Shown here: positions 2,752 to 6,963 of the stretch, piece after piece
Numbering within the stretch: position 1 is the first letter of the stretch
How the letters are laid out: each line of letters begins with the position of its first letter
IMG/VR virus record: IMGVR_UViG_3300029878_000067
Length of the DNA: 7,989 nt
Source: a virus
Taxonomy: Duplodnaviria; Heunggongvirae; Uroviricota; Caudoviricetes
Direction: 5' to 3' (one strand)
The notes under the pieces: generated by a model
What the model was told of the DNA's origin: nothing
The model's input: the letters and a program-made list of their open reading frames with translations, nothing else
The model's database searches: none
Made by a program: the position numbers and the translations under genes

Positions 2752-3533
2752 ACCCCGTTTTTGTTTCGCTTACGTGGCATGCTGGCCACCGGCTTTCCGT
2801 AGACGGATGCCCCTTTAATGGGGATCACCCGGAACAGCCCATGTTTTTTCGAGCGTTCATACACAATGGTCGGGTCAATCCCGCCAGTATCCCAGCAGAT
2901 ACGGGATACCGACATCTCTGCACCATTCCGGCGGGTATAGGTTTTATTGATGGCCTCATCCACACGCAGCAGCGTCTGTTCATCGTCGTGGCGGCCCATA
3001 ATAATCTGCCGGTCAATCAGCCAGCTTTCCTCACCCGGCCCCCATCCCCATACGCGCATTTCGTAGCGATCCAGCTGGGAGTCGATACCGGCGGTCAGGT
3101 AAGCCACACGGTCAGGAACGGACGCTGAATAATGCTCTTTCCGCTCTGCCATCACTTCAGCATCCGGACGTTCGCCGATTTTCGCTTCCCACGTCTCACC
3201 GAGCGTGGTGTTCACGAAGGTTTTACGTTTTCCCGTAAGGGTGTTGCGCTGCTTATGCTCTATGAAGTAGGCATAAACACCCAGCAGCATTTTGGAATAA
3301 CCGACACGGGCANNNNNNNNNNNNNNNNNNNNNNNNNNNNNNNNNNNNNNNNNNNNNNNNNNNNNNNNNNNNNNNNNNNNNCAGCGCCCTTCCTGGTATG
3401 CGGATTCTTTCGGGAGATAGTAACTGGCATCCGCCCATTCAACGGCAGTCTGTGGCTCCGGCCTGAACAGGGCTCGCAGCCCGGCGCGTACATCACGCCG
3501 CAGAATATCAATCTGACTGTTCGATATATTCAC
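2709..3533 (-). pseudogene. A: Terminase large subunit A remnant: N-terminal ~99 codons joined to a C-terminal nuclease-domain segment, then fused out of frame to the B remnant; contains a 69-nt N-run
   Basis: Seen in sequence: translation [15 protein letters not shown]...ARVGYSKMLLGVYAYFIEHKQRNTL is followed directly by TGKRKTFVNTTLGETWEAKIGERPDAEVMAERKEHYSA...MPRKRNKNGV. Established knowledge: in lambda gpA these two blocks are separated by roughly 300 residues (ATPase-domain region), so there is an internal deletion at about 3236. After KNGV the frame runs into B-derived DNA and stops at 2709. The start overlaps Nu1 by 26 nt as in lambda. Confidence 0.85.
3313..3381. other. Run of 69 ambiguous bases (N): assembly gap or masked segment inside the terminase A remnant
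   Basis: Directly visible in the sequence; appears as X residues in three ORF-track translations. Confidence 0.97.
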
Positions 3534-4229: not shown

Positions 4230-4241
4230 AGGTCGCCGCCC
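4230..4241 (-). other. cosN: cosN 12-nt cohesive-end sequence (GGGCGGCGACCT on the minus strand)
   Basis: Exact 12-mer AGGTCGCCGCCC on the plus strand at 4230..4241, embedded in lambda-like flanks, about 177 bp from the Nu1 start codon (lambda spacing is about 179). Confidence 0.85.
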
Positions 4242-4464
4242 CGTAACCTGTCGGATCGCCGGAAAGGACCCGCCAACGACTTTCGCGTGCAGGCATTAAA
4301 AATTTTGCAGTTCCATGCCTAGTTGAAACCTCGATTTCTATAACATCCAATTTTGTAAATTTAGATATAGCTCAACTTTTCCCAATGTTTTCAAGTGTAT
4401 AAAAACAATTGGCGTTACGCCATAACACTATACTTAGGATAAGTAAAGATTTTAAGGAGTTTTA

Positions 4465-5532
4465 ATGAGTCAACATCAATATTACCCACAGCTGAAATGG
4501 AAGCCTGCTGAATATGAATCTCTGATGCTTTTAGATCAAACTACGCTCTCTGGTTTTACTCCGATCATTACCATTCCAGACATAGACTGGGATTATGAAA
4601 ACGAATGCTACAAGAAGAGTTTGAGTTCTTACTTATCTGACTTCGGTATTAACCTTGCGGCATCCTGGAAAGCCAATCGTCCTGTTTTGCTGGATGTTAA
4701 ATATTTAGATAAACATGGTTCGAGCCGCCATCATCCTCTAGATATGTGTATCCAAGATGCTAGAGTAAATGGTAAGGAAATTATCCCTGTTGTCTCTCCC
4801 GCATATTCAACAAACTATATACATGCTGTTCAACGCAACTTAATCAATGGGCTCGCTATATCTATCACCCCCCAGACATGGCACCAATTCACAAGTCTGG
4901 TTAACCACTTAAATATTCATCCTAGTTTAATTGATGTAATCATTGATTTTGGAGATATTCAAAACGCAACTGATAGTTTAAAACAACAAGCATTAAGCAT
5001 GGTCAACACATTATCAGGCCAAGCTCCGTGGAGAAACTTGATTTTATCTTCAACCGCATACCCTGCATCACAGGCAGGGATACCGCAACATCAAGTTCAT
5101 CATATTCCGCGCCATGAATACGATCTTTGGATGTATGTAGTACAGAATTTTAGCAATGGAAGAACGCCAAGTTTTAGTGATTATCCCACCGCTAGCTCTA
5201 CCATTACGAGCGTAGACCCACGCTTCATGTCTCAGTATGTCTCAGTGAGATATTCGAACGATACCTCATGGATCTTTGTAAAAGGTACCGCAGTTAAAGG
5301 AAATGGATGGGGCCAAACTAAAAACTTATGTACTACCCTTGTTAGTTCGCCAGAGTATCAAGTCTTTGGCTCCAAATTTAGTTGGGGGGATGATTACATT
5401 TACCAAAGATCATTAGGCGCTAACAAATCTGGCGGCTCTAAAGAATGGCGTAAAGTTGCACATACGCACCATATTACGTTAGTCGTGAGACAGCTTTATT
5501 GGTTGGCGCAGACTCAGCCTGCCAAGCCTTAA
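4465..5532 (+). CDS. Hypothetical protein, 355 aa, AT-rich cargo gene; function unknown
   Basis: Seen in sequence: long ORF with a perfect AAGGAG at 4454..4459, 5 nt before the ATG; GC content visibly lower than the flanking phage genes (by eye, not computed); AT-rich upstream region with -10-like hexamers (TATAAA 4398..4403, TATACT 4429..4434). Protein begins MSQHQYYPQLKWKPAEYESL; no nucleotide-binding or catalytic motif that I can assign with confidence. Confidence 0.72.
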   Translation: MSQHQYYPQLKWKPAEYESLMLLDQTTLSGFTPIITIPDIDWDYENECYKKSLSSYLSDFGINLAASWKANRPVLLDVKYLDKHGSSRHHPLDMCIQDARVNGKEIIPVVSPAYSTNYIHAVQRNLINGLAISITPQTWHQFTSLVNHLNIHPSLIDVIIDFGDIQNATDSLKQQALSMVNTLSGQAPWRNLILSSTAYPASQAGIPQHQVHHIPRHEYDLWMYVVQNFSNGRTPSFSDYPTASSTITSVDPRFMSQYVSVRYSNDTSWIFVKGTAVKGNGWGQTKNLCTTLVSSPEYQVFGSKFSWGDDYIYQRSLGANKSGGSKEWRKVAHTHHITLVVRQLYWLAQTQPAKP

Positions 5533-6094
5533 CTTTCCAGCCTACGCGTTTCTTTAAGGCTGTTCTGACTTCAAGCCTGAGATTCGCTATTGGAATATTT
5601 TCCGCAATAATATTCCATAACTCAAATCGGGGCTTGCTTTTGATTCCTTTGGAATAGCCCCATCGTTCAAGTACGTCGATACATTCATCTTTCCAAAGCA
5701 ATTGAGCGAGCATCAATGAGTTATGGTTTCGATTAAGCTTTTCTCCACGCATGTGCTTTATAAGAATGGCGCCTTTTGGCCCAACAGAAACCGTTTTAAC
5801 GCCCCACCAACCTGGGATTAACTTTAATGCTCCCTCAAGATGTTTCTCAGCTACGACAAGAGTAACCTTGTCCATTACAGAAGAATAATGCTTGATTTGA
5901 AGAGGCAAACGCTCCAAAGAGTCATATTCACTTTTGAGCTCGTACCCGTGTATAACACCATTTATTACAGCAATGTCTGCTCTACTGGCGCCAAGGGATA
6001 TGGAAAATTCATCGACCACAAGGCAGTCAGGATCTAAATGCGATTCTTTCAAAAGCTTATGATGCACCGCGAACCTAACATCTTGATCTTTCAT
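5474..6094 (-). CDS. Hypothetical protein, 206 aa, with a PD-(D/E)xK nuclease-like motif; AT-rich cargo gene
   Basis: Seen in sequence: ORF with AAGGAG (plus-strand CTCCTT at 6100..6105) 5 nt before the ATG. Protein contains LVVDEF ... SRADIAVING ... HGYELKSEYD, i.e. an acidic residue, then D, then E-x-K about 11 residues later, in an alternating strand/helix context. Inference: this is the signature of restriction-endonuclease-like folds. Convergent with, and overlapping by 59 nt, the 355-aa gene. Confidence 0.7.
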   Translation of the reverse strand: MKDQDVRFAVHHKLLKESHLDPDCLVVDEFSISLGASRADIAVINGVIHGYELKSEYDSLERLPLQIKHYSSVMDKVTLVVAEKHLEGALKLIPGWWGVKTVSVGPKGAILIKHMRGEKLNRNHNSLMLAQLLWKDECIDVLERWGYSKGIKSKPRFELWNIIAENIPIANLRLEVRTALKKRVGWKVKAWQAESAPTNKAVSRLT

Positions 6095-6122
6095 GACTTC
6101 TCCTTACTCCCTCCGTTACTGA

Positions 6123-6128
6123 ATTATA
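6123..6128 (-). promoter_or_regulatory. Candidate -10 hexamer (perfect TATAAT on the minus strand) about 30 nt upstream of the 206-aa gene start
   Basis: Plus-strand ATTATA at 6123..6128 is TATAAT on the minus strand; no good -35 match at 16..18 bp spacing; an adjacent tandem repeat occupies the -35 zone. Confidence 0.3.
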
Positions 6129-6132
6129 GCGC

Positions 6133-6151
6133 ACTGCATTTTACTGCATTT
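6133..6151. repeat. Tandem direct repeat ACTGCATTT x2 with 10-bp periodicity, immediately upstream of the candidate -10 of the 206-aa gene
   Basis: Plus strand reads CACTGCATTT TACTGCATTT at 6132..6151; one helical turn apart; located where a -35 element or activator/repressor site would sit. Confidence 0.5.
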
Positions 6152-6445
6152 GAGAGATTTGACCACTTCAATCACAAAATGCTTATCTGCAGCAACAAGA
6201 TTCATAGCCATACGACTATGGTGATTACCTTTTGTCTGGAAAACTGACCATTCCACGAAGATCAGATAGGTCTATAGAATCTTGGTTTGTCATAGCGTTC
6301 GCCTTACTTTGAGATGAACCTTTGCTGCATAGGAGATCAGCCCGTCAAGGCTCACCAGCACTAACTGACTACTCAAAGGCTCATTCCAAAGGGTTTGGTT
6401 CGACGTGGTTGAGTGCGCTGCGGTGCGCGGTGAAATACCTGTACA

Positions 6446-6473
6446 AAAATGCCCCGCATCTGCGAGGCATTTT
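6446..6473 (-). terminator. Terminator-like hairpin about 38 bp downstream of Rz, flanked by an A-run and a T-run (potentially bidirectional)
   Basis: Seen in sequence: AAAAATGCCCCGCATCTGCGAGGCATTTTCC. GCC/GGC and CGC/GCG pair around an ATCT loop with A-T extension; on the minus strand the stem is followed by TTTTTGTAC (5 U), on the plus strand by TTTTCC (4 U). No folding energy was computed. Confidence 0.42.
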
Positions 6474-6510
6474 CCTGAAAGTCACTTGTTAAATTTCAGT
6501 GAAATTAAAA

Positions 6511-6963
6511 TTATTTTAAGCACTGCGTCCTGATGTACTCCTGCAAGTAGTTAACCTGCGCGGTTATCTTGTCGATTCCACTTCGGAGACGGTAATAATT
6601 GAGTTCAGCATCTGCTGTAAGTCCTGGGCTTTCTCCATTGCCCATGCCGCTGGCTCCGGTCGTTGACTTTGCACAGGTGGCGGCGACTTGCAGGCGCTTA
6701 CGCCCAACAGAAACATCAGCACGTAGACTTTCGATAGTCGCGTTAGCATCAGCAAGCTCCTTTGTGTATCTTGCGTCGAGTTCTGCTACATCACGTTGAC
6801 GCTTCCGCATGTCAGCGATGATGTACGTGGCTTTATCGCGCTGTTCTTTATAGGTAATGGCATTATCACGGTAATGATTAACAGCCCATGACAGGCAGAC
6901 GATGATGCAGATAACCAGAGCATAAATAATCGCGGCGACTCTGCTCACTGATCTATCCCCCAA
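6511..6963 (-). CDS. Rz: Spanin inner-membrane subunit Rz (i-spanin), 150 aa
   Basis: Protein has an N-terminal TM segment [30 protein letters not shown] and a coiled-coil-like remainder; closely resembles remembered lambda Rz; sits immediately downstream of the endolysin with a 19-nt overlap. Confidence 0.85.
6564..6755 (-). CDS. Rz1: Spanin outer-membrane lipoprotein subunit Rz1 (o-spanin), embedded in the +1 frame of Rz
   Basis: ORF entirely inside Rz in another frame; signal-peptide-like N-terminus with lipobox-like VSAC followed by a proline-rich segment [16 protein letters not shown], the typical Rz1 architecture. The true start could be an internal Met. Confidence 0.72.

Follow-up and report, generated by a model that had tools for sequence, protein, structure and literature searches.

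Two predicted, overlapping promoters in a conserved region upstream of the cII-like gene of a prophage-borne beta-cII module

Prophage cargo must be expressed from a repressed prophage, so that the promoters of the cargo decide whether the host benefits. The window analysed here (a viral stretch of 7,989 nt, IMG/VR record IMGVR_UViG_3300029878_000067) is, in minus-strand orientation, the late part of a lambdoid prophage of E. coli. A sequence-only reading had drawn attention to the DNA in front of a nuclease-like gene, where a TATAAT hexamer stands without a canonical -35 box and two copies of a 9-nt repeat lie one helical turn apart, and had taken this for a factor-dependent promoter gated by a DNA-binding protein, either phage-encoded or the partner protein. 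Comparison with related loci indicates that 6165-6123 is a real, conserved promoter region and that it belongs to the cargo module. The features discussed below, including the two candidate RNA polymerase sites P1 and P2, are collected in Table 1.

Table 1. Positions of the promoter elements, module genes and flanking features in the window
Feature	Position	Strand	Basis or remark
P2, -10 hexamer TATAAT (ATTATA on the plus strand)	6123..6128	-	Direct reading; preceded by GTGCGC (G-14, C-13)
P1, -35-like hexamer TGGTCA	6160..6165	-	Promoter scan; TRGYCA across relatives
P1, -10-like hexamer TAAAAT	6138..6143	-	Promoter scan; junction of the repeat units; TARAAT in all lineages
Repeat copy 1 (upstream), AAATGCAGT	6143..6151	-	RAATRCAGT in relatives
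Repeat copy 2 (downstream), AAATGCAGT	6133..6141	-	RAATGCNGT in relatives
Shine-Dalgarno region, GGAGGGAGTAAGGAG	6100..6114	-	Direct reading; leader short and unstructured
206-aa sce7726 / P4-cII-family protein, PD-(D/E)XK-like	5474..6094	-	NF033832, E 3e-54
355-aa Beta protein, convergent partner	4465..5532	+	PF14350, E 8e-56
Upstream cargo junction, rha start codon (ATGA)	6290..6293	-	BLASTN against L002 and L003
Terminator-like hairpin after Rz, upstream of the module	6446..6473	-	Inverted repeat; kept in rha-carrying phages

The gene served by this region encodes a 206-aa protein that is also recognised by the PADLOC model 'cll' (E 3e-31) and aligns with P4 cII in BLASTP (E 4e-19). The protein consists of a PD-(D/E)XK core followed by a C-terminal helical domain. 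Its AF2 model (pLDDT 89.6) finds MmcB-like 3dnx and DNA-bound SfsA, 4dav (E about 8e-4), as best Foldseek matches, and these PD-(D/E)XK folds, together with the motif D40...E52-x-K54, support the label 'nuclease-like' that the gene had been given. The convergent partner is matched by the PADLOC PD-Lambda-2_C and 'beta' models and, over its full length, by P4 beta (BLASTP, E 3e-7). By homology, the two are a gop-less beta-cII pair, distant relatives of P4 cII and beta; indeed, no ORF longer than 43 aa lies between cos and the beta start codon, and gop is likewise absent from relatives L005-L008. In the satellite phage P4, gop-beta-cII (Ghisotti 1990, cited in Rousset 2022, PMC9122126) has been validated as a defence against the phages lambda and P1 (PMC9122126), and a phage accessory gene acts as its trigger (bioRxiv 10.1101/2023.04.06.535777). 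The window module resembles it in that Beta (PF14350) and cII/sce7726 are homologous, the two genes are convergent, the module adjoins cos, and a GCTATAAT-type -10 element stands about 30 nt before the cII start with no good -35 box. It differs in lacking gop, in protein identity (22-26%), in residing in a lambdoid prophage, where it fills the Rz-cos slot and replaces rha, rather than in a P4 satellite, and in its promoter: the TG of the extended -10 is shifted by 2 bp in the window, while P4 has neither the 10-bp tandem nor P1.

On the minus strand, the order around the cargo is a DUF1327 protein, lysozyme, Rz, the cargo, cosN (AGGTCGCCGCCC, 4230-4241), Nu1 and a damaged terminase gene. In phages that carry rha (P22, IdasGreatGrand and E. 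coli prophages) homology to the window runs from Rz into the intergenic region and ends at 6290, exactly at the rha start codon, and P22-type phages match the window at 6290-6520 only. At this codon the module has taken the place of the rha ORF. The cargo has a GC content of 38-43%, against 50-60% in the flanking phage genes, and is thus a moron by both distinct base composition and a sharp insertion junction between conserved phage genes. Like other lambdoid morons (for example lambda bor, in Rz-cos), it combines lower GC and a sharp junction, here at the rha ATG, with a conserved promoter block of its own. Unlike them, it is a two-gene convergent module whose promoter-proximal cII-like gene points along late transcription, and no clear terminator of its own was found for it in the window. 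The cargo occurs in 127 of 5426 complete E. coli genomes, and in 124 of the 127 the stretch 6080-6300 is at least 99% identical.

Several smaller observations concern the same neighbourhood. The upstream region, ribosome-binding site and ATG of rha are retained and open a 22-codon ORF (MTNQDSIDLSDLRGMVSFPDKR*; 6225-6293, minus strand) that runs into the cargo-specific sequence 6160-6290, an E. coli-specific spacer without a match in phage or plasmid collections. At the other end, the beta ATG (4465) lies 224 nt from the lambda-type cohesive-end site, and the P4 gop-beta-cII hotspot is likewise adjacent to cos. The prophage is defective: the ORF for the terminase large subunit (3533-2709, minus strand), which contains a run of N at 3313-3381, matches the GpA nuclease domain only, the ATPase part being absent, and near 2700 it joins tail genes, namely a 104-aa ORF without a Pfam match (2606-2292) and tip attachment protein J (2234-3).

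Outside E. coli the module keeps varied company. In Klebsiella its neighbours are prophage lysis genes on one side and an HNH gene on the other; in Pantoea it adjoins the S subunit of a type I restriction-modification system, and in Pectobacterium it is flanked by metabolic genes. More distant relatives occupy the portal / GPA hotspot of P2-like prophages. Judged from these sequences, the two-gene beta-cII form is widespread. The gop-less pairs among L132-L140 and L143-L146 occupy several settings: between portal and GPA of P2-like prophages, a known defence hotspot; next to HicAB; behind the holin and lysozyme of another phage; and close to SLT-domain genes.

The promoter stretch as a whole, in minus-strand reading, is GTGGTCAAATCTCTCAAATGCAGTAAAATGCAGTGCGCTATAATTCAGTAACGGAGGGAGTAAGGAGAAGTCATG. 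The TATAAT hexamer is separated by 28 nt from the ATG of the 206-aa ORF (6094..6092), and in between stand two Shine-Dalgarno sequences, GGAGGGAG (6114-6107) and AAGGAG (6105-6100). With spacers of 16-18 nt, the -35 candidates for TATAAT are AATGCA, AAATGC and CAAATG, which match TTGACA at 0-2 of 6 positions, so that the description of a TATAAT without a canonical -35 box upstream of the nuclease-like gene was right, coordinates included. The repeat search also returned the tandem, with a start-to-start distance of 10 bp (plus-strand form ACTGCATTT), and the spacing of one helical turn holds. Counted from the start derived from TATAAT, taken 7 nt downstream of it, copy 1 covers -35..-27 and copy 2 -25..-17. 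Only copy 1 therefore occupies the -35 zone in which both had been placed, and copy 2 falls in the spacer. A perfect tandem of at least 9 nt at an offset of 10 arose in 2.5% of 2000 first-order Markov simulations of the whole window, and at offsets of 9-12 in 10% of 2000 such simulations. The repeat by itself is weakly significant, and the main evidence is conservation.

Relatives fetched by protein similarity fall into six lineages at 78-85% amino-acid identity; Klebsiella, Edwardsiella, Pantoea, Pectobacterium and metagenomic sequences are among them. Upstream of the gene they can be aligned over the last 70-100 nt before the ATG only. Within these, similarity between the two groups of lineages sets in at the T of TGGTCA (6165), where the -35 box of P1 starts, and in the block 6150-6125 as many as 21 of 26 columns are invariant across the six lineages. 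Outside the block, the six positions 6156-6151 and the 5' UTR as far as the Shine-Dalgarno sequence are scrambled. At third codon positions of the same genes, 25% are invariant and mean pairwise identity is 59%; against this 25%, 21/26 corresponds to a binomial P of about 4e-9, a value that treats the sequences as unrelated. Selection on the block is thus strong, which bears out the view that the nuclease-like gene has its promoter here. Both repeat copies share the skeleton RAATnCnGT in all lineages and are conserved as units in every close lineage, a pattern such as an operator would show; the perfect 9/9 repeat is confined to the E. coli lineage, and elsewhere 7-8 of 9 positions agree between the units. 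What is seen directly is the set of sequence elements, how they are conserved, and that they move together with the module.

A consensus promoter scan of the window reported not TATAAT, which has no -35 box, but P1, in which TGGTCA and TAAAAT are separated by 16 nt. P1 matches the consensus at 9 of 12 positions and combines what defines a sigma-70-type promoter here, namely at least 4/6 matches to TTGACA, A2 and T6 in the -10 box and a spacer of 16-18 nt. The scan calls it at the homologous position in the Klebsiella, Pantoea and Pectobacterium relatives (L006, L007 and L008). With a simple position weight matrix it is the top site in four of seven upstream regions and among the top three in all seven. 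Against P1 stand its match at no more than 9 of 12 positions and its score, which only equals the 90th percentile of the top sites obtained when 253-nt pieces are drawn at random from the window. The pattern of change between lineages is that expected of a promoter: both hexamers are kept while six spacer positions are scrambled; in TGGTCA the four positions that match TTGACA are invariant and the two that do not match vary; and TAAAAT varies at its non-consensus third position only. We therefore predict that P1 is a complete sigma-70-type promoter which had been missed, with a start near 6132-6130, relative to which copy 1 would lie at -20..-12 and copy 2 at -10..-2. As it overlaps the repeats and is kept in relatives, it undercuts the earlier argument that the lack of a -35 box implies dependence on a factor. 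Across the lineages compared, P1 is also better conserved than TATAAT, which is TACAGT in Pantoea and TATAAC in Pectobacterium; in the latter the essential last T is lost, while TAAAAT and TRGYCA are intact.

P2 nevertheless has a pedigree of its own. It is not an extended -10 promoter, since it carries C-15 and G-14 and its TG stands at -17/-16 instead of -15/-14. A TG at -15/-14 is present both before P4 cII, where TTGCTATAAT lies 30 nt ahead of the ATG, and in a Tatumella relative (L015, TTGCTATAGT), and relatives at 52-62% identity show (G/T)TGCTATA or a close variant. Judged by this distribution, P2 looks like the older element of the two, and may descend from a TGCTATAAT-type extended -10 promoter such as stands before P4 cII and in the Tatumella relative; its start is predicted near 6117-6116. 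The sigma-S holoenzyme prefers -10-only promoters with C-13 and G-14 and no -35 box (Maciag 2011, PMC3141248), and promoters of this type are marked by a conserved -10 box, no -35 and a C at -13 within TNGC (PMC3141248). P2 resembles them in its strong -10 hexamer, G-14 and C-13, the missing -35 box and the A/T-rich stretch from -10 to the start; it differs in having G rather than T at -16 and in being overlapped by a sigma-70-type promoter. With G-14 and C-13 marking -35-less promoters that sigma-S recognises, even TATAAT on its own would need no activator.

The explanation we favour, at about an even chance, is that 6165-6123 holds two overlapping promoters and that the repeat junction serves as a -10 box. 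The module, a mobile cargo of two genes, beta and cII ('moron'), would carry this region with it as the promoter of its cII-like gene, and in the region two RNA polymerase recognition sites, P1 and P2, overlap and are 15 bp apart. In the Tatumella relative (56% identity), a single AAATGCTGT is present with TGCTATAGT directly after it, and the simplest reading, based as it is on this one single-copy relative, is that 10 bp were duplicated in tandem in the ancestor shared by the close clade. The tandem would then be a clade-specific duplication of the segment just upstream of the ancestral -10 box, and its junction would have created the TAAAAT box and hence P1. Expression in the lysogen would be autonomous and would need no phage factor, and during lytic growth Q-antiterminated late transcripts would also read through the cII-like gene. 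Which site fires, the history of the duplication and constitutive expression are what we infer from these elements. Nothing in the block departs from known promoter biology, and it appears to be an ordinary bacterial promoter region. A promoter block is thereby defined for a widespread gop-less beta-cII pair, kin of the validated P4 gop-beta-cII, and its 45 bp offer a precise target for reporter and footprint work.

The promoter hexamers alone leave unexplained why AATRCAG is invariant in the P1 spacer and GCNGTGCG between the two -10 boxes, and it is here that a bound protein comes into consideration. The form closest to the sequence-only reading, in which no -10 box but TATAAT works and the repeats, as class II-type activator sites, stand in for the -35 box, strikes us as improbable. 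The perfect hexamer without a -35 box and the position of the upstream copy at -35..-27 would suit it, but the downstream copy lies in the spacer, where RNA polymerase touches DNA, and Pectobacterium loses the last T of this hexamer while TAAAAT and TRGYCA are unchanged. The analogy is with direct repeats about one helical turn apart over a missing -35 box, as in PhoB and lambda CII promoters. Promoters dependent on lambda CII have TTGC-N6-TTGC straddling the -35 hexamer, at about -39 to -26, and the pho box of PhoB consists of two 11-bp direct repeats, each made up of CTGTCAT and an A/T-rich 4-mer, and stands 10 bp ahead of the -10 box. An ATGC-N6-ATGC in the window resembles the CII site at three of four positions per unit, but it lies at -33..-20 from TATAAT, 6 bp nearer the -10 box than in lambda pRE, and the block is also found outside phages. 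For a pho box the motif (unit AAATGCAGT), the period of 10 rather than 11 bp and the position, with repeats that abut the -10 region, are all different. The retention of the block outside prophages tells against any activator supplied by the phage: the same block stands beside the module in the non-phage contexts of Pantoea and Pectobacterium, and since it travels with the module into such contexts, a phage-encoded gating factor is unlikely. By the same reasoning, any factor should be module-encoded or a conserved host protein, and the position of the repeats at -20..-2 of P1 and -35..-17 of P2 predicts that a protein bound there would be a repressor, not an activator.

Repression is accordingly the form in which a factor deserves a hearing, and we regard it as possible, though on the unlikely side, that the two RAATnCnGT units are tandem repressor sites. 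A protein covering them would occlude RNA polymerase and could hold the module at a low, buffered level, by analogy with the autoregulation of toxin-antitoxin pairs; P4 gop-beta does behave as a toxin-antitoxin-like pair (PMC9122126). The cII-like protein could act there by itself or in a beta-cII complex; a host factor conserved among enterobacteria is a further candidate. Each unit keeps an identical set of seven positions in six lineages, some of them outside the hexamers, the invariant columns stand out from flanks saturated with changes, the two sites share one side of the helix owing to their 10-bp phasing, and the persistence of the block outside phages leaves a module-encoded or host factor only. 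That the skeleton is kept in both units in all lineages points to an extra constraint, for example a bound protein. Several observations speak against an operator, however. The motif (allowing at most one mismatch per unit and three per pair) has no further copy in front of beta, in the rest of the window or in about 14.5 kb of an intact prophage; the units differ at 1-2 of 9 positions in every lineage but that of E. coli; neither protein has a DNA-binding domain by Pfam or NCBIfam; and beyond the close clade the relatives have no tandem repeats upstream. Among known binding sites, LexA, sigma-54, CpxR, OmpR, the marbox, Ada and EcoKI gave no fit when compared by eye with their consensus sequences, and a CRP-like TGTGA at 6176-6172, judged in the same way, is misplaced and absent in three lineages. 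A family-wide operator architecture was likewise rejected, as tandem repeats upstream of 47 more distant homologues are no commoner than in control DNA. A dedicated DNA-binding factor for the repeats is thus possible but not required. The more specific proposal is that the PD-(D/E)XK cII-like protein, on its own or together with Beta, uses the RAATnCnGT units to repress the promoter of its own gene; we hold this to be doubtful. Were it true, an autoregulatory loop, which phage attack could release, would determine the beta-cII level, and sequence-specific DNA binding would be the first molecular role for the P4 'cII' family.

At the other extreme, the repeat might be incidental, the product of chance or of a slippage duplication, or part of a small ORF or an RNA element; we consider this very improbable. 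It gains something from the perfect form being confined to the E. coli lineage and from a second perfect 10-nt tandem in the window, two copies of ATGTCTCAGT at 5227-5246 (plus strand) within the beta ORF, where they encode FMSQYVSV. In close relatives that tandem reads ATGTCTCAATATGTTGCAGT (7/10), so that perfection of both repeats is specific to the E. coli lineage. The strong purifying selection on the promoter block argues against mere chance, as does the fixed number of units, which is two in each of the 46 sequences, among those fetched, with a match to the promoter repeat in its E. coli form; the beta-ORF repeat likewise has exactly two units in 45 of 45 matching sequences, and phase variation by gain or loss of units was discarded on these counts. 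A small ORF, 6256-6116 (ending ...KCSKMQCAIIQ*), does cross the block, but the changes fall at its first and second codon positions while the third is invariant, the opposite of a coding pattern, and its start is not conserved across lineages. A leader RNA element fares no better, as the leader is unstructured (folding z = +1.27) and the region has no Rfam match at E <= 1.

We found no description in the literature of a promoter of P4 cII or of sce7726 genes, and the GenBank records of P4 have no cII promoter annotated. Further out in the family the upstream DNA is organised differently. Most of the relatives fetched at 52-60% identity (L012, L017, L019, L020 and L132-L138) have CGTGCTATAA some 78 nt ahead of the ATG of the cII-like gene, followed by a conserved leader, GGATGATATGGATTTAAAGTCTACGGCTTCAAAAA, which codes for no conserved peptide and is absent in the clade of the window.

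The two genes of the module also meet at their 3' ends, where the beta ORF and the convergent cII-like ORF share 59 nt (5474-5532). In L005-L008 the shared stretch measures 11 nt, in the clade at 52-57% identity it measures 41-44 nt, and in P4 a terminator stands between beta and cII instead. Antisense interference between the overlapping genes is possible. Upstream of beta, on the plus strand, 4361-4422 contains a conserved block, TTAGAT..TAGCTCAA..TATAAA (4398-4403), which is unrelated to the promoter motif of the cII-like gene. It is followed by a leader hairpin, TGGCGTTACGCCA (4410-4422), with a different hairpin, GGACCATTTGTCC, at the same place in three other lineages, and the stretch is probably the beta promoter with its leader hairpin.
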